From Bacteroidales bacterium (lineage in GTDB: Bacteria > Bacteroidota > Bacteroidia > Bacteroidales > UBA7960): a stretch of DNA of 37,526 nt. The translations under genes were made by a program, and so were the position numbers. The notes beneath the pieces are model-generated. The model was not told the DNA's origin, did not search any database, and saw only the letters and a list, made by a program, of their open reading frames with translations. This document shows, one piece after another, positions 1-11,340 of this stretch; the stretch's first letter is position 1; each line of letters opens with the position of its first letter. Location: NCBI GenBank assembly GCA_007128045.1, contig SKYG01000012.1, forward strand, positions 1 through 37,526, read 5' to 3'.

Positions 1-2
1 AA

Positions 3-1037
3 ATTGCTGTCATAGCGTTCAGTACTATCTTTCTTTTCCTGGGTTGCAATATGCGCCCAAAAAATGACATCACCGTTTTTCCCGCTTCAAAAAAAGCAAC
101 TCTGAATGAAATCGGTATTCCGAACGTTTTAGCGGTACCAATGGAGCTTGTAATTCTCGATGATAAGATTATAATTTATGATATGCTTTCTGAATGGATA
201 TTCAAAATTTTTTCCAGAGAGAGTTTTGATTTTAAAGGAGATTTAATCATGCGAGGAAGGGGACCCATGGAAGAAGTAGACGTTTCGCCATATTTCAGAA
301 GATATGGGAATGACACTTTTCTTTACAAAAGCACTGGCACCGTAAAAGTTGCTGAAATACATTCCAACAATAGAGATTTGAATTATGTTATCATTGATGA
401 ATTTGCTTTGCCTGCGGATATGCATTATGATGACGATTTTTTTCTGTTAAACGACAAACTCTTCTCATCTATTACCTTTCAATCGATCGCCAGGGATTTT
501 AGATGTTTTGACATTGATGCCAATAGTACCTACGAGTGGGGAGAATTACTTCCCCTGCGCAGACCAAAATCTTTGCATCCAGATGACATATTCTATCTTG
601 CCAAGTTTACAACAGTGAATCCTGACCAAAATCTTTTAGCCGTTGTTTATCAGAACCTTCCAATACTTAGAATTTATTGCATTAATAGTGTCCGGGCGCT
701 TTCTCAACAACATATGGCCGATGGTTCAGATAACATAAAATATTTTAAAAGAAATTCTTTTGGAGAAGGATTTCTCACATATTATGGGCGCATAAAATCA
801 ACCAAAGAATTTATTTACGCACTTTACCCAGGTACTGGTTTGTCCTGGGATGATGAAAATATTCCTGACTTAGCAACTGTTATTCATATCTGGAAATGGG
901 ACGGAACACCGGCGATGAAGCTTGAGCTTGACCGACCCATCTTTTCGTTTGACGTTACCCCCGACAACAAGCAGCTAATAGCCTCCTCAATAGTAGATGT
1001 TGACAAGCTTTTCGTGGCTGAGATACCATGGGATTAA
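3..1037 (+). CDS. Lipoprotein, probable 6-bladed beta-propeller (TolB-like/BF3164-type); 5' end outside window
   Basis: The frame stays open upstream of the ATG at 51 and reads IAVIAFSTIFLFLGCN, a hydrophobic stretch with a lipobox (Cys codon 45-47). Motifs RGRGPMEE, FIYALY, IHIWKWDGTP and FSFDVTPDNKQL resemble Bacteroidota TolB-like propeller lipoproteins. Confidence 0.7.
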   Translation: MAVIAFSTIFLFLGCNMRPKNDITVFPASKKATLNEIGIPNVLAVPMELVILDDKIIIYDMLSEWIFKIFSRESFDFKGDLIMRGRGPMEEVDVSPYFRRYGNDTFLYKSTGTVKVAEIHSNNRDLNYVIIDEFALPADMHYDDDFFLLNDKLFSSITFQSIARDFRCFDIDANSTYEWGELLPLRRPKSLHPDDIFYLAKFTTVNPDQNLLAVVYQNLPILRIYCINSVRALSQQHMADGSDNIKYFKRNSFGEGFLTYYGRIKSTKEFIYALYPGTGLSWDDENIPDLATVIHIWKWDGTPAMKLELDRPIFSFDVTPDNKQLIASSIVDVDKLFVAEIPWD

Positions 1038-1141
1038 TTGATTATAACAAATTAAGTTAGTGTCCCGCTTATTGTGTGGTTGAGAAGAACAGACGAGACT
1101 GGTTGTTGTCAAAAGTGATAACAATAGGTCAAATAAATTTA

Positions 1142-1149
1142 TAATTTAG
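1142..1149 (+). promoter_or_regulatory. Possible Bacteroidota -7 promoter element variant (TAATTTAG) upstream of tolC
   Basis: One mismatch to TAnnTTTG, in an AT-rich spacer about 115 bp before the tolC start. Confidence 0.35.
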
Positions 1150-1263
1150 CGGCATAACGAAATAATTAATATATTTAACCACAATATATCAATATACACC
1201 CGTATTTGCCGTTTTTCACCTGCTCGCCACACAGACCATTTGATCATCTATAAAGAATAAACC

Positions 1264-2757
1264 ATGAGAAGGTATTTCATCACCATTGCATTGTTCATAC
1301 ATAGTTTTACCTCCTTGTCCTCACAGGAAAAACTGCACCTCACCCTGGATGATGTGTTAACGCTTGCCCGTGAACAATCACTTCAGACATTCCTGAATCA
1401 GCATTATTATATGGTTGACTATTGGGCATACCGCAGCTTTAAGGCAGACTTTCTGCCATCGGTAAACCTGAGGGCAAATCCATTGGGATATTCCAATGTG
1501 TCACGTCTGCGATACAACTCTTTAACCCAAACCGATGAATTTGTTCGTACCGAGAATCTTACATCCGACATGGTACTTGAAGTGTCTCAGAAACTGGCAG
1601 CTACCGGAGGAACGTTCTTTATGCAATCTGAACTGGGACGAATTGAAAATTTTGGCTTGAATAACTTCACTCAATACTCATCCGTGCCCTTCAGAATTGG
1701 CTATCAACAGGAACTGTTTGGCTTCAATCCCATGAAATGGCTTCGTAAAATTGAACCGCTCAAATTTGAAAAAGCCAGGCAAGAGTATCTTGAGTCAGTT
1801 GAAGATATGCATATTGCCGCAGTCCGTTACTTCTTTGCGATGGCCAGGGCTGCCGTTAGACAAGAGACGGCCTCAACAAACCTCGAAAACAATAACAACC
1901 TCCTTCAGATAGCACACAATCGCTTTGAGCTGGGAACCGTAACCCGTGAGGAATTGCTTGACTTGAGATTATCAAGCAACAATGCCGCAATCGTGCTACA
2001 GGAATCCAACCTGGAATACCGTGAAACAAAAGAGAGCCTGCTGAATTTTCTGATGCTGCCTATCGATACGGACATCGAAATACAACTGCCTAACAACATC
2101 CCTGTAACGCAAGTGGATGTCGGGATTGTGCTTCACAATGCCTTTGCCAACAACCCGGAGATACTGCAATTGGAACAGCAAGTCCTTGAAAGCAAAAGAA
2201 ATGTTGAACAGGCCAAAACAGCCCGCCACTTTCGCGCCAATGTCAATGTTTTTTATGGTATGAGTAAGGATGATGGTGATTTGTCGCGAAGCGGACATAT
2301 CGATAATGTCTATAGTGGAGATTTTAACAACCACCAGCGGATATCATTGGGCATCAATATCCCTATACTTGACTGGGGAAGAAATAAAGGACACTATGAA
2401 ATAGCCTTATCGCAACAACAAATTGCCGAAACTGCTGCACAGCAGTCGCTGCAGAAGTTCGAACAAAAGGCTGTAACAGATGCTATCGCTTTCAATATAC
2501 AGAAAGCACGTGTTGAGTCAGCTGCCCTTTCCGATACCCTGGCCGCAGAAAGTTATGAATTGACCATGGCAAGGTTTCGCGGTGGACAGGCGGATGTGTT
2601 AAGGCTTACCTCTTCTCAAAGTGCGAAGGATAACGCACGGCTGCAATACATCAATACCTTGTCTGAATATTGGGAAAGTTATTTTCTGCTCAGACGCCTG
2701 ACATTATACGATTTTGAAAATAACAGGGTCATAGAGTTTAATGAAATGGAGTTATAG
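1264..2757 (+). CDS. TolC family outer-membrane efflux protein
   Basis: Signal peptide, LTLDDVLTLA N-terminal helix, FLPSVNL, ARFRGGQ and INIPILDWG motifs, two repeated OEP halves, and position upstream of adaptor and RND genes. Confidence 0.92.
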   Translation: MRRYFITIALFIHSFTSLSSQEKLHLTLDDVLTLAREQSLQTFLNQHYYMVDYWAYRSFKADFLPSVNLRANPLGYSNVSRLRYNSLTQTDEFVRTENLTSDMVLEVSQKLAATGGTFFMQSELGRIENFGLNNFTQYSSVPFRIGYQQELFGFNPMKWLRKIEPLKFEKARQEYLESVEDMHIAAVRYFFAMARAAVRQETASTNLENNNNLLQIAHNRFELGTVTREELLDLRLSSNNAAIVLQESNLEYRETKESLLNFLMLPIDTDIEIQLPNNIPVTQVDVGIVLHNAFANNPEILQLEQQVLESKRNVEQAKTARHFRANVNVFYGMSKDDGDLSRSGHIDNVYSGDFNNHQRISLGINIPILDWGRNKGHYEIALSQQQIAETAAQQSLQKFEQKAVTDAIAFNIQKARVESAALSDTLAAESYELTMARFRGGQADVLRLTSSQSAKDNARLQYINTLSEYWESYFLLRRLTLYDFENNRVIEFNEMEL

Positions 2758-2783
2758 TATAAAACAATATAAATCATAATGAC

Positions 2784-3881
2784 ATGCCTGAACATCCGAT
2801 TCTTCTCACAATAAAAGTCATGTTGCTGGCCGCATGCTTATCGGCAATTGTATCATGCCGTCAACAGAGCGGTGACGATTCTACCGCCCTTGCGCGTAGG
2901 GCACACTATGCAGAGCTTATTGAAGTGAGTACTACCCCCGCAAAAAAGGGCAATTTCTCAATGGAGCTTATTACAAACGGCCGCCTGAGTGCAATAAATA
3001 AGGCTACAGTGCTATTCAGGGTGCAGGAATTGGTCAGGGAAGTTCATGTGATCAACGGCCAGAGAGTAAGAAAAGGTGAACTACTGGCTGTGCTGGAGGA
3101 GTTCCCCTTTGTGTCGAGACTCGAGAGGGCCCTCGACCAGGTTGAGAAAACCAGGCTGGAACTGGAAGACGTGCTGTTAGGTTATGGCCATTTCTTACGC
3201 GATAGTGCCCAGGTATCCGAACATATCTGGAATATGGCAAAAATAAGAAGCGGGTATAATGCCGCCATGAACGAGTTGGCCGAAGCGCGATATCAAATGA
3301 ATGGCACCAGGATCGAGGCTCCTGTTGCCGGAGTGGTTTCAGGACTGGAGGTCAAACCCCATAACCACAGTTCATCCTATGAAAAATTTTGTGTAATTGT
3401 TGATAATACACGCCTGGAAGCCAGATTTCCAGTTCTGGAGTCGGAAACATCGATGGTGGCCAGAGGGCAACCCGTGGAGGTAAGGCCCTATGCAAACAGG
3501 AGTATATCATATACAGGTACTGTAACAGGTTTTGACCCAAGTGTTGATGAGCGGGGGATGGTAATGGTAAGGGCATTGATAGAAAACCCCGGTGGCGAAC
3601 TGCTGGATGGAATGAATGTGCAGGTAATCCTTAAAAAGGAAATACCCAACCAGATCATTGTCCCGCGTGATGCGCTGGTGCTAAGGCAGGGAAGACAGGT
3701 GGTCTTTACTCTGGAAGATAGTATCGCACTTTGGACCTATGTTGAAACTGGTTTTCAGAATAGCAGGGAGTATACCATAAATAGCGGCATTATCGAGGGA
3801 CAGGAGGTTATTGTGTCAGGTAATTTCAACCTGGCACATGAAACCCCGGTAAGGAAAGTTCAACAAGAGGATAATCGCTAA
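2784..3881 (+). CDS. Efflux RND transporter periplasmic adaptor (MFP), probable lipoprotein
   Basis: Lipobox-like SAIVSC, lipoyl half-motifs VINGQRVRKGELLAVL and IEAPVAGVVS, LLDGMNV, IIVPRDAL and VETG...GIIEGQEVIVSG. Confidence 0.92.
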   Translation: MPEHPILLTIKVMLLAACLSAIVSCRQQSGDDSTALARRAHYAELIEVSTTPAKKGNFSMELITNGRLSAINKATVLFRVQELVREVHVINGQRVRKGELLAVLEEFPFVSRLERALDQVEKTRLELEDVLLGYGHFLRDSAQVSEHIWNMAKIRSGYNAAMNELAEARYQMNGTRIEAPVAGVVSGLEVKPHNHSSSYEKFCVIVDNTRLEARFPVLESETSMVARGQPVEVRPYANRSISYTGTVTGFDPSVDERGMVMVRALIENPGGELLDGMNVQVILKKEIPNQIIVPRDALVLRQGRQVVFTLEDSIALWTYVETGFQNSREYTINSGIIEGQEVIVSGNFNLAHETPVRKVQQEDNR

Positions 3882-3970
3882 TAACGATTATATTTTATTC
3901 AAACCGGACAACTCAGGTTTTTGCATGTATAATCTATACAGGTTAGGTACAGAAGATTAAAGATGCTGAA

Positions 3971-6900
3971 ATGATAAATGCAGGGTTCAATAACAGGCAG
4001 CCAGGCCTCCTTCCATGGGGGATGTCAGCATTTACTACCAATATCATTTTCGTGGTGTTGATAATTGGCGGTATTGCCCTCGCCCCGCTCACCTCATTCA
4101 AGTTTAAACCAACCCGTGCACTGCCTTCGATATCGGTGAGCTATAACTGGCCAAATATTAGTGGCAGGGTTATTGAAATGCAGGTTACCGGCCCCCTGGA
4201 ATCTGCCTTTTCTACAGTTAGGGGAATAAGAAACATCAACTCCGTATCTTCCAGAGGCAGCGGCAGGATCAATATGGCGTTCGACAAAACTGCCGACATG
4301 GATGCGATTAGGTTCGAGATCGCTGCGCTTATTCGTCAGGTGTATCCTAAGCTGCCTGAAGGCGTGAGCCGGCCTTCGCTGACCCTAAACAGACCCGGCG
4401 AAAACGAACCACCCCTGATAACCTATACCATTAATGCCAAAACAACGGTTTTTACCATTGGTAAGTATGCTGAAGATGTGATCAAAAGGCGGCTGTCAGA
4501 TATACCGGGAGTGTATTCAATAGATATTACCGGTACACTTCCCTATGAATGGGAACTGAAATATGATGCTGACAGGATGCAGGAGCTTGGCATTGACCAT
4601 ACAAAACTTCGCGCATCTATTAACAACTACCTTAGCGTACATGAAATGGGTCAGGTGCTGCTGGATCGGGACGGGGATACGGAAAACAGGATCAATCTGC
4701 TTTTCAGAGGAAACCCGGGCGACAACTTTAACTGGGAACATATTCCGGTTGCAGTTTCAGGCGGAAGAATAGTGAAACTGACCGAAGTGGCACAGCCCTG
4801 GTACGTTGAGCAGGCTCCCAACTCTTATTACCGCATTAACGGACTGAGTACCGTGAATATGATAATTACCGCGGAAAAAGGCGCCAACCACCTGAACGTG
4901 GCAAAGGAGGTGAAAAACAGGATGAGCCGTCTGCGGGATGAACTGCCCGCAGGATTCTCAATAACCGTAGCCCGCGATTCAACAGAGTTTCTAAGAGGTG
5001 AGCTACGAAAGAACATATTTCGTACCTCCTTTTCCCTGGTGGCACTCCTGATCTTTATATACCTGGTAACCCTGCAACGACGCTACCTGTACATTGTCGC
5101 CATAAGCCTCCTGGCAAACCTGATCATTGCCTTTATCTTTTATTTCATGCTCGGTGTTGAGATACACCTCTACTCACTTGCTGGGATCACTGTGTCTTTG
5201 GGGATTCTGATCGACAATACCATCGTGATGATAGACCATCTGCGCCATAAGAAAAACCTGAAAATATTCATTGCCCTCCTGGCTGCAACCCTTACCACCA
5301 TCGGTGCGTTGACAGTGGTCTTTTTCCTTAAGGAAAGCCAAAAGGTAGACCTGGTAGATTTTTCAATGGTTGTTATCATTAACCTCTCGATATGCCTCTT
5401 TATTGCCTTGTTTTTTGTACCCGCCCTTATGGAGAAGATGCCGCTGCGTACCAACCATACATCCAGGATGTTGCGTAGAAAAAGGCGTGTGGCAGCATTC
5501 AACGGTTACTACCGGCGTTATATTGCATTTGGCCGACGCTTCAGATTCGCTTTTATCATTGCCGCGGTACTGGCATTTGGCTTGCCTGTATTCTGGCTCC
5601 CGCAAAAAGTAGAAGGTGAAAAGTGGTACCATTCCCTTTATAACACCACCCTGGGTAGTGAAAAATATATCAAATCCATAAAGCCTGTAACCGACAAGGT
5701 ACTTGGAGGAACGCTCAGGCTCTTTGTCTATCACGTATCGGAACGGTCATTCTTTACACAGCCCGAACGTACCACCCTGCACGTCAGGGCTTACCTCCCT
5801 GAAGGGTCAACCATTATACAGGCAAATACGGTGATGGAGGATTGGGAGAATTTCCTGGCGCGCTTTGATGAGGTTGAGCAATATCATACCAGAGTGAATG
5901 GACCGGAAAGTGGCAGTATAGAAATTCATTTTTATCCTGAACATGAAAATACCTTTTTCCCTTACCGGCTCAAAAGCCTGCTTGAGCAAAAGGCTATCTA
6001 TTCAGGAGGTGCCGATTTTACGGTGTTTGGCGTGGGACAGGGTTTCTCAAACAGGTTTTATGAAAGAGCAAGCCCCGGCATCAGAATCACCGGCTACAAC
6101 TACGACATGCTTTCCAACTATGCCACGCAGATTGTTGCAAAACTCGAAGCACAACCCAGGATACAAAAAGTGCACATGCAATCAAGCCGGAATTACTGGT
6201 CCCTTGACCTGAGAACAGAATATCACATGGAGTTTGACAGGGGCTCCCTTGCAAGACTGGGATATACCATCCCCAGTGTTTATTCATACCTCCGCAGCCT
6301 CTTTATTCATGATTCAGGCCCTTTTGGAGGAAATATTCAGGGAGAGTATGTGCCCATGCGGTTAAAAGCAAAAAATGCTGAACAACTGGGACTATGGGAA
6401 GTGGAAAATACGATGATCGGCAGCAGCAGAGGCCATGCTTTCAAATTAAACGAGGTTGCTGAAATTACAAGAACAAGGGCGCCAGATGCGGTTTTCAAGG
6501 AGAACCAGCAGTATTTTATAACCCTGATGTATGACTTCATGGGTCCATATGAACTGTCGAGAAGAGTAAGAGAAGGCGTAATAGATGAGGCCAACGGGTT
6601 TCTGCCATTGGGATTCAGGGCATTAGACCCGCAAAGGGGTATGACATGGAGGGTTGATGAAAAAAGACAATATGGCCTGTTACTCCTTGTCATATTGATC
6701 ATATTCTTTATATGTGCCATATTGCTGGAGTCATTGCTGCAGCCCCTGGCTGTCATTCTTATGTTGCTGCTGTCATATATTGGCGTATTTCTCACATTTT
6801 ACTTGTTTAACTTTAATTTCGACCAGGGGGGATACGCAGCCTTCCTGTTTTTGAGCGGCATCGTGGTTAACTCAGCACTGTATATCCTTAACGATTTGAA

Positions 6901-7186
6901 TAACCTGCGCAAAAGCAATCCCTATCTGACGGTTATCGATATGTATATCAAGGCGTATAATGCCAAGATCATTCCCATATTGCTGACCGTGATATCCACC
7001 ATACTGGGACTGACGCCTTTTCTTTTTGGTGGCAAAACCGAGTCATTCTGGTTCGCCCTGGCGGTAGGAACGATCGGAGGACTGGTTTTCTCTCTTCTTG
7101 TGTTGATGGTGTTTTTGCCGCTATTGATAAAATATGTGTCGCCTGAAAGATCTTCTGTGTCGCTGTACCTGCGAAACCTGTGCTGA
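3971..7186 (+). CDS. Efflux RND transporter permease subunit A (AcrB/AcrD/AcrF family); alternative start 4022
   Basis: 1071 aa with 1+5+1+5 TM topology, QVTGPLESAF, TM4 GILIDNTIV and PILLT motifs. Confidence 0.92.
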   Translation: MINAGFNNRQPGLLPWGMSAFTTNIIFVVLIIGGIALAPLTSFKFKPTRALPSISVSYNWPNISGRVIEMQVTGPLESAFSTVRGIRNINSVSSRGSGRINMAFDKTADMDAIRFEIAALIRQVYPKLPEGVSRPSLTLNRPGENEPPLITYTINAKTTVFTIGKYAEDVIKRRLSDIPGVYSIDITGTLPYEWELKYDADRMQELGIDHTKLRASINNYLSVHEMGQVLLDRDGDTENRINLLFRGNPGDNFNWEHIPVAVSGGRIVKLTEVAQPWYVEQAPNSYYRINGLSTVNMIITAEKGANHLNVAKEVKNRMSRLRDELPAGFSITVARDSTEFLRGELRKNIFRTSFSLVALLIFIYLVTLQRRYLYIVAISLLANLIIAFIFYFMLGVEIHLYSLAGITVSLGILIDNTIVMIDHLRHKKNLKIFIALLAATLTTIGALTVVFFLKESQKVDLVDFSMVVIINLSICLFIALFFVPALMEKMPLRTNHTSRMLRRKRRVAAFNGYYRRYIAFGRRFRFAFIIAAVLAFGLPVFWLPQKVEGEKWYHSLYNTTLGSEKYIKSIKPVTDKVLGGTLRLFVYHVSERSFFTQPERTTLHVRAYLPEGSTIIQANTVMEDWENFLARFDEVEQYHTRVNGPESGSIEIHFYPEHENTFFPYRLKSLLEQKAIYSGGADFTVFGVGQGFSNRFYERASPGIRITGYNYDMLSNYATQIVAKLEAQPRIQKVHMQSSRNYWSLDLRTEYHMEFDRGSLARLGYTIPSVYSYLRSLFIHDSGPFGGNIQGEYVPMRLKAKNAEQLGLWEVENTMIGSSRGHAFKLNEVAEITRTRAPDAVFKENQQYFITLMYDFMGPYELSRRVREGVIDEANGFLPLGFRALDPQRGMTWRVDEKRQYGLLLLVILIIFFICAILLESLLQPLAVILMLLLSYIGVFLTFYLFNFNFDQGGYAAFLFLSGIVVNSALYILNDLNNLRKSNPYLTVIDMYIKAYNAKIIPILLTVISTILGLTPFLFGGKTESFWFALAVGTIGGLVFSLLVLMVFLPLLIKYVSPERSSVSLYLRNLC

Positions 7187-7200
7187 GCTTAGTCGAAGTA
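7177..7200 (+). repeat. 24-bp REP-like unit CCTGTGCTGAGCTTAGTCGAAGTA containing the RND-A stop codon
   Basis: Resembles the dispersed CTGAGC..GTCGAAG repeats I recall from Bacteroidota intergenic DNA. It lies between CCTGCGAAA and TCTGCGGG. Only one copy is in this window. Confidence 0.5.
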
Positions 7201-7268
7201 TCTGCGGGACACATAAATAACAGACTTTCGCGGATCGTTTGTATGTATATAAAACTTGAAATGGTACT

Positions 7269-10200
7269 ATGGTAAAATTCCTTATTAATCGACCGGTTGC
7301 GGTAATCATGAGTTTTCTGGCGATGGTATTGCTGGGATTGGTAAGCGGTGGACTGCTCCCGGTGTCGCTGTTGCCTGACATACAAATACCGGAGATCACC
7401 GTTCAGGTTTCGCATCCCAATGCTTCGGTCAGAGAGCTGGAGAATACTGTGGTAAGGCCACTCCGACAACAACTGCTTCAGGTGGCTGGGCTGTCAGACA
7501 TTGAGAGTGAGGTCCGCGATGGTAACGCAATGATACGTTTGCGTTTCACCCACGGCTCGAACATGAATTACCTCTATATCGAAGTCAATGAAAAAATTGA
7601 TGCCGTAATGGGCAACCTGCCAAGGGAACTGGAAAGACCCCGTGTGATCAAGGCAAGCGCATCGGATATTCCGGTTTTCTATCTTAATATATTTATGAAC
7701 AGAATAGATCAGGATCAGGACCTTTCCCAATTTCTTGAGCTGAGTGAGTTTGCCGATTGGGTTATTCGCAAGCGAATCGAACAATTGCCGCAGGTGGCCA
7801 TGGTCGATGTAAGCGGTTTGGTATACCCTGAAGTTTCTGTAGTGCCTGATCAGGGGATGATGACAGGCCTGGGTTTGACACATGATGATATCAGGCAGAT
7901 GATGGAGCAGAACAACGTGACCCTCGGGAGCCTCATGGTGCGCGATGGCATCTACCAGTATAACGTAAGGTTTACCTCAACACTGCATAATGTTGAGGAT
8001 ATCGGGAATATCATGATCATGGCTTCAGACAGGCTGTTTAGACTAAAAGATCTGGCAAAGATAAACGTACGCCCAAGAAAACCGGAGGGCCTCTTTCACT
8101 GGAACGGCAGGCCTGCTGTCACAATGGCCGTTATAAAGCAAGCCGAAGCCCGTATGAGCGACATGAAAGCGGCGATGAAAAACCTTACATCAAGGTTTGA
8201 AAAGGATTACCCCCAGATGCGTTTTGAACTTTCGCAGGACCAGACGGGTATATTGGACTATACCATCGGAAACCTGAGAAATAACCTGATCCTCGGGGGC
8301 AGCCTGGCAATTATCTTGATGTTCCTGTTTCTGAAGGATGTAAGGTCGCCGTTGCTAATTGCCATGAGTGTACCTACCTCACTTATTATCAGCTTGCTGT
8401 TTTTCAAGCTGACGGGCCTGTCACTCAATATCATTTCCCTGTCGGGTTTGATACTCGGAGTGGGTATGATGATTGACAATTCAATCATCGTTATAGACAA
8501 TATCACCCAGCACATGGAACGTGGCCACCCGCTTCACGAAGCATGTATAAAGGGTACCAATGAAGTTATCCGGCCACTGATATCATCTGTACTGACTACC
8601 TGTGCGGTGTTTATCCCCCTGATCTTTCTTAGCGGCATTGCCGGAGCCCTTTTCTACGATCAGGCAATAGCAGTGGCCTCAGGACTGGCTGCGTCACTAA
8701 TCGTGTCAATAACGCTAATTCCGGCATTGTATCACCTGATTCATTATAAAACCCGAAACAAGTCCGGCTTGAAGAAGTTCCATTCTTTTCAGGTGTTCAA
8801 ACTCGAGAATGCCTATAACCGAGGATTCGACCTGGTGTTTAAGTACCGCCGTCTTGCCATGGTTGGTTTTGTATTGTTATTGTTGATTGCCGGAGCACTG
8901 TATACCATGTTGCCCCTGCAAAAGATGCCACCGCTTAAGCAGATAGAAATGGTCATGAAGATCGACTGGAACGAAAGCATCCATCTTGACGAGAACACCT
9001 CAAGGGTATCGTCACTGATCAATCACCATGATGAGATGATTGTAGAATCGGCCGCTTTTACCGGGCGGCAACAGTTTCTGCTCGGACGTGACATTGATAA
9101 CGATATAACCCACGCCTATGTCTATCTGAAATCCCATGATCAACAGTCACTATCTGCGCTCAGGGAAAACATACTTGCTACCGTTGCCAGTCGCTATCCC
9201 CTGGCAAGAATCGGCTTTGAGCCTGCAACAAATGTGTTTGATAAGATCTTTGAATCACAACAGCCCCCCCTGGTTGCGAAAATTACCAGCGTTCAGGGAC
9301 AAAGGGTGCCGGAAGTGAAAAAGATCAGGCACATTGGACGGATGATTGCCGGTGCCCACCCTGATGCTGAAATTAACCCATTGCCATTGGGTGAGAATAT
9401 TGTTTTAGGGGTGTATCCTGACAAGCTATTGCTATACAAGGTGAATCAAACCCACCTTTACGGTCAGATAAAAACGGCACTTGATCAGTACGAGATAGGC
9501 CGGTTAATGGCCGATCAGACTCTGGTGCCCATTGTTTTGGGGGAGGAGGAACGGCTGATTGAAGATATCATTAACACCCTGCTGGTACGAAATTCTGAAG
9601 GTGCCCACATTCCCGCCACAGCACTTGTCAGCATGCACCGGGAGGCCGGTTACAGCTCCCTGGCTGCAGGCAGAGAGGGAGAGTATATACCTGTAATATT
9701 CAGCAATCCGGGAAACAGAACCGGGATGCTTATCAGCAGTGTGGAGCAGCTTGTAAGGCAAGACCCTGAACTTGATGTGAGCTTTTCTGGCAGCTGGTTT
9801 GAAACGCGCATGCTGATGCGTGAGATGCTGCTCGTGGTGCTGATCTCTCTGCTGCTTCTGTATTTTATCCTGGCAGCTCAGTTCGAATCGCTGCTACAGC
9901 CCCTCATTGTGATGCTGGAGATACCAATGAACCTGGCAGGGGTGTTCCTTGCCCTGTTTATTGCCGGGGCAGGTATCAATATCATGTCAATGATTGGTAT
10001 CGTGGTAATGGCAGGTATCGTGATCAACGACTCCATCCTAAAGATAGACACCATCAACCACCTGAGGGCTGACGGCATGTCGCTCATGGATGCGTTGCAT
10101 ACCGGCGGTACCAGAAGGCTGAAACCTATTGTGATGACAAGCCTCACCACCATTCTCGCCCTGACACCCACACTCATTGGCAAAGACATGGGCTCGGAGT

Positions 10201-10337
10201 TGCAGGAACCCCTCGCCCTGGCAATCATTGGTGGCATGGCAATGGGTACTGTTGTCAGCCTGTATTTTATCCCGCTGGTTTACTGGTTTTTTTATAACAA
10301 GACTCCGGAAGCCTCAACACTCACTCAATCACCGTAA
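7269..10337 (+). CDS. Efflux RND transporter permease subunit B (AcrB/AcrD/AcrF family)
   Basis: 1022 aa; MVKFLINRPVAV start, LPVSLLPDIQIPEITV, TM4 GMMIDNSIIVIDNI, LAAQFESLLQP and RLKPIVMTSLTT. Confidence 0.95.
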   Translation: MVKFLINRPVAVIMSFLAMVLLGLVSGGLLPVSLLPDIQIPEITVQVSHPNASVRELENTVVRPLRQQLLQVAGLSDIESEVRDGNAMIRLRFTHGSNMNYLYIEVNEKIDAVMGNLPRELERPRVIKASASDIPVFYLNIFMNRIDQDQDLSQFLELSEFADWVIRKRIEQLPQVAMVDVSGLVYPEVSVVPDQGMMTGLGLTHDDIRQMMEQNNVTLGSLMVRDGIYQYNVRFTSTLHNVEDIGNIMIMASDRLFRLKDLAKINVRPRKPEGLFHWNGRPAVTMAVIKQAEARMSDMKAAMKNLTSRFEKDYPQMRFELSQDQTGILDYTIGNLRNNLILGGSLAIILMFLFLKDVRSPLLIAMSVPTSLIISLLFFKLTGLSLNIISLSGLILGVGMMIDNSIIVIDNITQHMERGHPLHEACIKGTNEVIRPLISSVLTTCAVFIPLIFLSGIAGALFYDQAIAVASGLAASLIVSITLIPALYHLIHYKTRNKSGLKKFHSFQVFKLENAYNRGFDLVFKYRRLAMVGFVLLLLIAGALYTMLPLQKMPPLKQIEMVMKIDWNESIHLDENTSRVSSLINHHDEMIVESAAFTGRQQFLLGRDIDNDITHAYVYLKSHDQQSLSALRENILATVASRYPLARIGFEPATNVFDKIFESQQPPLVAKITSVQGQRVPEVKKIRHIGRMIAGAHPDAEINPLPLGENIVLGVYPDKLLLYKVNQTHLYGQIKTALDQYEIGRLMADQTLVPIVLGEEERLIEDIINTLLVRNSEGAHIPATALVSMHREAGYSSLAAGREGEYIPVIFSNPGNRTGMLISSVEQLVRQDPELDVSFSGSWFETRMLMREMLLVVLISLLLLYFILAAQFESLLQPLIVMLEIPMNLAGVFLALFIAGAGINIMSMIGIVVMAGIVINDSILKIDTINHLRADGMSLMDALHTGGTRRLKPIVMTSLTTILALTPTLIGKDMGSELQEPLALAIIGGMAMGTVVSLYFIPLVYWFFYNKTPEASTLTQSP

Positions 10338-11340
10338 CCCACCCATGCTCATCAGCTTCATCCCCATACTGGATGCCCTGAAGCTTTTGAAACAGCTTGG
10401 TGGACCAGGGTCCGGCCTTGCCATCTTTGCTGAAGGTGTAGATTTTGCCACTTTCTCGTTCAACGATTGTTCCTATCGGAGAGATGATAGCGGCTGTGCC
10501 GCATGCCCCGGCTTCTTCAAACTCTGCAAGCTCCTCAACAGCTACCTGCCTGCGCTCAACCTTCAACCCCAGATCTTCTGCCAATCGCATAAGACTCATG
10601 TTTGTTATGGAGGGCAGGATAGAGTCAGACTTGGGTGTGATATACGTTTTATCCTTAATGCCGAAGAAATTGGCAGGACCGGCTTCATCAATGTATTTCT
10701 TTTCTTTGGCTTCTAAAAAGATGACGGATGCAAACCCTTCGCTCTTGGCTCTTTCAGAAGCTCTCAGACTGCCGGCATAATTTCCCCCTACCTTGATATG
10801 TCCTGTGCCAAGTGGCGCTGCACGGTCTATATCGCGAATGACCTGCATCTTTACCGGGTTAAACCCTTCCTTGAAATATGGGCCAACAGGTCCAACGAAT
10901 ACCATGAACATATACTCATTGGCCGGACTGACGCCAATCTGGACGCCGCTACCTAATAGCAGCGGACGAATATATAACGCGGCCCCGTGACCATATGGCG
11001 GTACAAATCGCTCATTAAGTTTTACAACCTTAAATACCATCTCCTTGAACAATGTTTCAGGCACTTTGGCCATGAGAATGCCTTCGGCAGATCGTTGCAT
11101 ACGTTTTGCATTCTCTTCCCAGCGAAACAACCTGACCTTTCCGTCTTTTCCCCTGTAGGCCTTCATGCCCTCAAAGGCCTCCTGACCATAATGAAGACAT
11201 GTTGCCGCCATATGCATGTTAACGATCTCAGATGATGAAATCTCTATCTCCCCCCATTTCCCATCACGATAATAACAGCGGAGGTTGTAATCTGTTTTGA
11301 AATACCCGAAAGGCAGCTTTGACCATTCAATTTCGTGCAT
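10321..11340 (-). CDS. ilvE: Branched-chain amino acid aminotransferase
   Basis: LHYGQEAFEGMKAY, LYIRP, PLP lysine KVGGNYA, ILPSIT and GTAA motifs of class IV aminotransferases. Confidence 0.95.
   Translation of the reverse strand: MHEIEWSKLPFGYFKTDYNLRCYYRDGKWGEIEISSSEIVNMHMAATCLHYGQEAFEGMKAYRGKDGKVRLFRWEENAKRMQRSAEGILMAKVPETLFKEMVFKVVKLNERFVPPYGHGAALYIRPLLLGSGVQIGVSPANEYMFMVFVGPVGPYFKEGFNPVKMQVIRDIDRAAPLGTGHIKVGGNYAGSLRASERAKSEGFASVIFLEAKEKKYIDEAGPANFFGIKDKTYITPKSDSILPSITNMSLMRLAEDLGLKVERRQVAVEELAEFEEAGACGTAAIISPIGTIVERESGKIYTFSKDGKAGPWSTKLFQKLQGIQYGDEADEHGWVTVIE

Follow-up and report, generated by a model that had tools for sequence, protein, structure and literature searches.

The five genes considered here lie at one end of contig SKYG01000012.1. 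The window, which is the whole stretch of DNA analysed (37,526 bases), comprises this entire contig (C49 of a 389-contig, 3.14-Mb assembly with a completeness of 83.7%). The genes are co-oriented on the + strand at 3..10337 and encode a β-propeller lipoprotein, a TolC-type channel, an adaptor, and two permeases of the resistance-nodulation-division (RND) family, to be referred to as RND-A and RND-B. The two permease genes form an obligate pair, and the pair recurs with propeller lipoproteins far above chance (see below).

3..1037, + strand: propeller gene (PROP), encoding an NHL-type six-bladed β-propeller lipoprotein (PF15869; lipobox FLFLGC; structure model), truncated on the 5′ side by the start of the contig
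1264..2757, + strand: TolC-type outer-membrane factor (PF02321 OEP, E 2.2e-27, in two stretches; N-terminal signal peptide)
2784..3881, + strand: periplasmic adaptor (membrane fusion protein), a probable lipoprotein (TIGR01730 RND_mfp; PF16576 and PF13437; N-terminal ..AIVSC lipobox)
3971..7186, + strand: RND-A, a divergent permease of 1071 aa (PF00873, E 1.5e-93, 314.7 bits, in two pieces)
7269..10337, + strand: RND-B, a more canonical permease of 1022 aa (PF00873, E 1.6e-174, 582.7 bits, full length)

A sequence-only reading of this stretch had described the same five genes, and all of them are present on the + strand with family matches above the cut-offs. The propeller scores 58.7 bits against PF15869 TolB_like (cut-off 29.2), the adaptor scores 154.5 bits against TIGR01730 (cut-off 94.9), and both permeases exceed the PF00873 ACR_tran cut-off of 28. 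The channel reaches 96.5 bits against PF02321 (cut-off 22) and 41.5 bits against TIGR01844, the model for type I secretion TolC (cut-off 225). Judged by these scores, it is an outer membrane factor that lies outside the TolC subfamily model. No regulator gene is found within 1..10337, in agreement with the earlier reading. Because the contig ends at base 1, this result and the presence of only one propeller gene are both of limited weight.

RND-A and RND-B share 24% identity over 554 aligned residues, and the earlier description of two very different full-length permeases is therefore correct. Homologues of RND-A are numerous across the Bacteroidota at about 45% identity, and are named, if at all, only as a generic efflux permease. 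Orthologues were collected from three samples: related genomes (E ≤ 1e-50, found in 13 of 40), 150 other genomes spread evenly over the order (E ≤ 1e-60, found in 29), and 300 genomes sampled from the whole phylum, 8 of which have a clear orthologue (37% identity or more). A further 59 genomes of the phylum sample have full-length matches at 23–29% identity and were left out of the orthologue set. For the neighbourhood counts, every open reading frame (ORF) within 12 kb was scanned with family hidden Markov models (HMMs) made in this analysis, and loci with at least 4 kb on either side of RND-A (n = 47) are referred to as well-flanked. The related genomes in these counts are not independent of each other.

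RND-B and the adaptor are located within 12 kb of RND-A in all 47 well-flanked loci, and a TolC-type gene is present in 21 of them. RND-A is single copy in nearly all the genomes that carry it. The gene order is variable. The commonest arrangement is adaptor, RND-B, (TolC), RND-A, and only a minority of loci share the order of the window (TolC, adaptor, RND-A, RND-B).

Among proteins of solved structure, MdtB is the best match to RND-A (E 4.2e-39). In an alignment to the solved chain, the proton relay positions of RND-A are D-N in transmembrane helix 4 (TM4), N-S in TM10, and a Lys residue three residues before the conserved Pro in TM11. Those of RND-B are D-N in TM4, N-D in TM10, and a Lys directly before the Pro in TM11. 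In comparison, the canonical Asp-Asp in TM4, Lys in TM10, and Arg in TM11 are found in three other pumps that this genome encodes. By its relay residues, neither RND-A nor RND-B is of the HAE1 type (AcrB/MexB kind). Among 84 orthologues of RND-A, the TM4 residues are conserved as Asp in 84 and Asn in 82, the TM10 Asn in 79, and the TM11 Lys in 84. Among 68 orthologues of RND-B, TM4 has Asp in 68 and Asn in 60, TM10 has Asn in 68 and Asp in 67, and TM11 has Lys in 53 or Arg in 10. The alignments indicate that the non-canonical relay signatures are family traits of both permeases. From these conserved residues, RND-B has two membrane carboxylates and RND-A has one, and this inequality would fit a division of labour within a heteromer. 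By analogy with MdtBC, which functions as a B2C heterotrimer according to the available part of PMC7015380, RND-A and RND-B probably form such a heteromer.

The arrangement in the window, with two adjacent paralogous RND genes and one adaptor gene, resembles those of MdtABC-TolC and MuxABC-OpmB. The permeases are not orthologous to MdtB or MdtC, however, as RND-A and RND-B reach 145.3 and 284 bits against the MdtB equivalog NF007798 (cut-off 1584), and 153.9 and 330.7 bits against the MdtC equivalog NF007905 (cut-off 1774). Moreover, unlike those of MdtABC and MuxABC, they are only 24% identical to each other and do not have the DD/K/R relay, and the genes around the twin pump are for peptides, propellers, and thioredoxin-like proteins rather than drug-response regulators.

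Two other RND arrangements were observed in this set of genomes. Another RND gene of the same genome (G000:C377:7686-11045, − strand, frame of 1151 aa) has D-N in TM4 and N-N in TM10 and keeps the Arg in TM11, which by these residues is a third non-canonical relay type. One relative contains a different, second pair of adjacent RND genes (G106:C10:118037-124325), with no propeller close by, and this genome therefore has a two-permease pump of another kind beside the twin pump.

The reading frame at 3..1037 is incomplete on the 5′ side, and its translation starts within a signal peptide with a lipobox. The AlphaFold model of the propeller (predicted local distance difference test (pLDDT) 82.8, predicted template modelling score 0.83) has a six-bladed NHL-type fold. 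Its best structural matches include the NHL domains of Brat (Z score 20.2) and Mei-P26 (18.8), peptidyl-hydroxyglycine amidating lyase (18.5), the DUF4221 structure 3s9j (BVU_1028; 17.5), and the thioredoxin-NHL fusions SOQ1 (15.7) and NHLRC2 (15.3). The family is strongly diverged, with a mean column identity of 15–16%, and the only near-invariant positions are the lipobox Cys and a GxGPxE motif. Such divergence would suit a specific binder rather than an enzyme. Propellers of relatives are assigned by Pfam to TolB_like, DUF5128, or DUF4221. They can be separated into two subtypes (n = 85), with 19 of the window type and 66 of the DUF5128 type, and each subtype pairs with its own subfamily of thioredoxin-like proteins, although the numbers are small. 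The possibility that the short, window-type propellers are a pump-proximal subclass was considered, and the case for it is weak, with adaptor or TolC as the next gene after 5 of 19 as compared to 10 of 66 of the DUF5128 type. A search for fused long propeller forms covered 806–2300 aa only, and the three proteins found in this range have no thioredoxin domain.

The propellers are found next to the twin pump much more often than expected by chance. A profile grown from the window propeller finds 39 propellers in the first 44 RND-A loci, and 35 of the 47 well-flanked loci have one within 12 kb of RND-A. Two more loci (L017 and L020) have a propeller just outside the fetched stretch. In five contiguous genomes, picked for their few contigs, 26 of the 28 propeller matches are no more than 30 kb away from RND-A, which is single copy there. 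With the same distance limit, a propeller is near all five twin pumps but only 1 of the 29 other RND genes. Across the 150-genome sample, 22 genomes have both RND-A and a propeller, 7 have RND-A only, 14 have a propeller only, and 107 have neither. The sequence-only reading had pointed to an association of this twin-RND type with TolB-like/BF3164-type propellers and had proposed a tabulation of RND-A neighbourhoods. The association holds for the loci examined here, and the tabulation reveals enrichment for propeller neighbours.

Clustering of unlabelled neighbours, followed by family scans, revealed several recurrent families around the pump. In many relatives, the gene directly 3′ of the propeller encodes a membrane-anchored thioredoxin-like protein of 170–230 aa, and 30 of 31 such proteins have a single CxxC motif. 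The model of one of them (pLDDT 87.0) has a thioredoxin fold, and its best structural matches are thiol-disulfide oxidoreductases of the ResA, TlpA, and Sco types. The upstream side could be inspected for 78 propeller genes, and 29 of them have, no more than 700 nt away, a Cys-rich signal-peptide ORF, for which a small size, an N-terminus like that of a signal peptide, and two or more Cys residues in the tail were required; three of these look false. One of the peptides (L026:4669-4908) is a member of NVEALA (PF14055), with 39.8 bits against a cut-off of 27, and two further small ORFs match NVEALA below the cut-off. Predicted small secreted neighbours, also mentioned in the earlier reading, are found beside part of the propellers.

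Paralogues of S26 signal peptidases are present in 11 of the 47 well-flanked loci. Among the eight with at least 200 aa, all have the KR box and six have the SM nucleophile motif. The peptides have, by eye, a conserved motif after the hydrophobic segment (NVEALA, AQAE, AEAE, ALAN, or AIAE). These motifs fit the AxA rule of S26 peptidases, and a private peptidase may therefore cut there; the sequences suggest the NVEALA-type motif as the cleavage site. The partners are also intermingled with the pump genes. In one locus (L084) a propeller gene and a thioredoxin-like gene are located between RND-A and RND-B, and in two others (L019 and L021) an S26 gene is located between pump genes. In a one-contig genome (G054), an island of about 40 kb, all on one strand between housekeeping genes, contains repeated peptide-propeller-thioredoxin units, then S26, Wzy-like, transglutaminase-like, and DUF1573 genes, plus the pump. 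There is one pump per genome and many cassettes, part of them at the pump and part of them dispersed.

Other small genes and remnants were observed in and around these loci. An IS4-family transposase gene (L107:5116-6279) is located within the G054 island and adjoins a propeller remnant (L107:6316-7212). Genes with Pfam matches to PF05635 ('23S rRNA intervening sequence protein') are found at L002:903-1262, L003:11620-11982, and L009:7330-7614, and a candidate small ORF of this type, placed in the same way, at L018:11023-11412. They sit in or beside the pump operon, and separate either the adaptor from a permease or one permease from the other. In three loci, the gene immediately before RND-A is a conserved one of about 220 aa (L004:7854-8510, L011:2575-3228, and L014:2066-2752), and also follows RND-B in L004 and L014. 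It has a weak match to IS200-like Y1 transposases (E 2.2e-4).

We tentatively favour an explanation in which peptides with disulfide bonds, exported by Sec, pass out of the periplasm by way of a heteromeric RND/TolC pump, and give it a little less than an even chance. The locus in the window would then be the export end of a conserved, undescribed gene system of the Bacteroidia. In this mechanism, the peptide would cross the inner membrane by Sec, and the S26 paralogue would trim it at an AxA site supplied by the NVEALA motif. The thioredoxin-like protein would oxidise the peptide while the cognate propeller holds it, and the twin-RND/TolC pump would finally expel it from the periplasm. The role of the propeller as peptide binder and that of the peptide as the substance exported are, like the heteromer and the cleavage site, what we infer. 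The propeller itself, suggested earlier as a possible cargo, is unlikely to be one, as it is a lipoprotein and each copy has its own thioredoxin-like partner; it may instead be a binding partner or an immunity protein. An oxidoreductase dedicated to the peptides would be reasonable here, since Bacteroides are described as having no general disulfide machinery, and bacteroidetocin loci as encoding their own thiol oxidoreductase, in the available part of PMC6671954. A more elaborate version is less likely. It would be a two-step secretion system with a private S26 peptidase and a private thioredoxin, hand-over by the propeller to a heteromeric RND pump in which cargo handling and proton coupling are split between the permeases, and exchangeable lipoprotein adaptors.

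Several observations weigh against peptide export. The chief mechanistic objection is that we know of no RND pump that exports a folded peptide of 4–6 kDa. As the contig begins within the propeller gene, no gene for a peptide, a thioredoxin-like protein, or an S26 peptidase is visible in the window, and the gene directly after this propeller is that for TolC rather than a CxxC thioredoxin-fold gene. An HMM scan of the 84%-complete assembly also found no thioredoxin-like or peptide gene. The scan found a single S26 gene, at the start of contig C335, which is probably the housekeeping LepB, and no member of the propeller family was found in the assembly besides that at 3..1037. A search of this genome for PF14055 gave no match, but the search control likewise matched nowhere. 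Among the relatives, the 7 of the 29 RND-A genomes without a propeller match and the 14 propeller genomes without an RND-A match are exceptions to the association, though 8 of these 14 have just one weak propeller match each (E above 1e-20). The accessory families are absent from 7 of the 47 well-flanked loci, or from 5 after correction for L017 and L020. In the propeller-rich genomes G043, G044, G101, G127, G148, and G161, most copies among the matches listed, of which there are at most 13 per genome, are on other contigs, whereas in G130 and G175 about half or more of the copies are at the pump. In addition, pump-side copies were the source of the propeller profile, which may be biased towards them. 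The putative function in the earlier suggestion, a peptide export machine rather than a drug pump, fits the gene context, but some pump loci have no accessory genes and, in propeller-rich genomes, most propellers are located away from the pump.

The same gene links would also be expected if the pump served for self-protection, clearing the organism's own or its neighbours' Cys-rich peptides from the periplasm or the inner membrane, with the propellers as immunity binders and secretion taking another route. The divergence of the propellers outside the lipobox Cys and GxGPxE motif, which suits specific binders over enzymes, agrees with this, as does the presence of one propeller per peptide cassette. 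However, the dedicated S26 and thioredoxin genes indicate production rather than defence, and pump and cassettes are co-oriented as if they were one operon. We consider self-protection unlikely. Ordinary efflux of small amphiphiles (bile, detergents, or metabolites) by a two-permease pump of the MdtABC kind, near which the cassettes merely accumulate, appears less likely still. All four pump components belong to standard families, the closest solved relative of RND-A is a subunit of such a pump, homologues carry the name 'multidrug efflux pump subunit AcrB' in the sources, and the pump is alone in 5 to 7 of the 47 loci. On the other hand, other RND genes in the five contiguous genomes are nearly devoid of propeller neighbours, and the presence of pump and propeller is linked across the 150 genomes. 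The insertion of cassette and S26 genes between pump genes and the relay residues unlike those of HAE1 pumps are also difficult to reconcile with ordinary efflux, and no TetR- or AraC-type regulator turned up among the neighbours scanned.

The third alternative, and the least likely of the three, assigns the thioredoxin-like protein and the NHL propeller to redox chemistry or modification of envelope proteins or glycoconjugates, and the pump to export of a small product, or of a lipid or glycan made by products of neighbouring genes (O-antigen-ligase-like, transglutaminase-like, and glycosyltransferase). Of the 47 well-flanked loci, 8 contain a gene for a Wzy_C+TPR protein, 7 a transglutaminase-like gene, and 7 a DUF1573 gene, and glycosyltransferase genes (GT2/GT4) are present in some loci. 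These neighbours are in the minority of loci, however, and are absent from the window. The thioredoxin-like and NHL folds of SOQ1 and NHLRC2 are encoded side by side in relatives of the window locus, which resembles the fusions, but here the genes are separate, with a lipid anchor on the propeller and a membrane anchor on the thioredoxin-like protein. The two fusions also match the propeller model no better than other NHL domains, and more weakly than the generic NHL domain of Brat. Moreover, the Cys-rich peptides are an obvious substrate for the thioredoxin-like proteins.

Peptide export through the twin pump would have parallels in other tripartite systems that carry substances from the periplasm to the outside, such as MacAB-TolC for heat-stable enterotoxin II, PvdRT-OpmQ for pyoverdine, and RND pumps for enterobactin. 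In these, the cargo reaches the periplasm first and then passes through an adaptor and a TolC-type duct. For the enterotoxin peptide and for pyoverdine, the motor is an ABC protein of the MacB type, unlike that of the twin RND pump.

Bacteroidetocins (class IIf bacteriocins) offer another likeness, with a small Cys-containing secreted peptide and a locus-encoded thiol oxidoreductase, as described in the available part of PMC6671954. In their loci, the peptide leader is of the GG type with 15 residues, export is by a C39-peptidase ABC exporter, and a propeller is absent. The system here instead combines a Sec-type signal with an S26 peptidase, the RND/TolC pump, and the NHL propeller. No GG-leader peptide with a C39-peptidase ABC exporter is found in the window, and no ABC or C39 match among the 93 neighbour proteins scanned.

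NVEALA (PF14055), DUF5128 (PF17170), TolB_like (PF15869), and DUF4221 (PF13970; 3s9j) are database families without a function. The window propeller is a member of TolB_like, those of relatives belong also to DUF5128 and DUF4221, and one peptide of a relative belongs to NVEALA. In the literature searched, no mention of NVEALA, DUF5128, DUF4221, or PF17170 was found, and BF3164 and PF15869 are mentioned only in unrelated work. A table in the available part of PMC10434189 gives expression changes, which are not significant, for genes of Bacteroides thetaiotaomicron annotated as O-antigen ligase family (BT0662), 6-bladed beta-propeller (BT0664), signal peptidase I (BT0667), and RND adaptor (BT0669). 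Compared by annotation names only, BT0662–BT0669 has the same set and order of genes as found here. No further mention of these locus tags was found in the literature searched. With this lead, the system looks testable. If peptide export is correct, it would provide a role for large, function-less Bacteroidota families (NVEALA, DUF5128, TolB_like, and DUF4221), add peptide export to the tasks of RND pumps, and account for the release of disulfide-rich peptides by bacteria that have no general disulfide machinery. A further consequence would be a caution against annotating the twin pump as a multidrug-resistance gene.

Two other features of the window border on the five genes.

1038..1263, no strand: AT-rich spacer that separates the propeller and TolC genes, without a TAnnTTTG match on the + strand, divergent between metagenomes
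10321..11340, − strand: ilvE, the convergent next gene (window map)

The rest of the window past the locus contains housekeeping genes, including those for PBP4, an MlaD-like protein, an amidase, LptD, FtsH, CdsA, Psd, RecQ, FeoAB, branching enzyme, and RtcB. Among the contigs of four DNA sequencing runs, the longest extends just 57 bases to the left of base 1 of the window. The runs that contain most of the stretch 1–10000 are labelled as soda lake, alkali sediment, and sediment metagenomes, and none is recorded as RNA. The top two match the window with at least 99% identity over long pieces.

Contigs of two related metagenome runs (X3 and X4) match the window as far as about 1083 and from about 1240 onwards, and differ between these positions. 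The spacer between the propeller and TolC genes is therefore strain-variable. One of the loose contig ends carries a repeated 8-base word. The motif TAnnTTTG, which we take to be the −7 motif of the Bacteroidota, has no match on the + strand before 7534, and a scan for sigma-70-type promoters gave 27 sites, no better than the 20.7 ± 4.4 sites in shuffled sequences. The G+C content is 0.38 in the first kilobase (1–1000, the propeller gene), as compared to 0.41–0.49 over the pump genes (1001–10000) and 0.449 for the assembly, and this low value would suit a cassette-like origin of the propeller gene. At the other end of the locus, no terminator-like site stands out between RND-B and ilvE. The 3′ ends of these two genes, on the + and − strands respectively, overlap by 17 bases (10321–10337).

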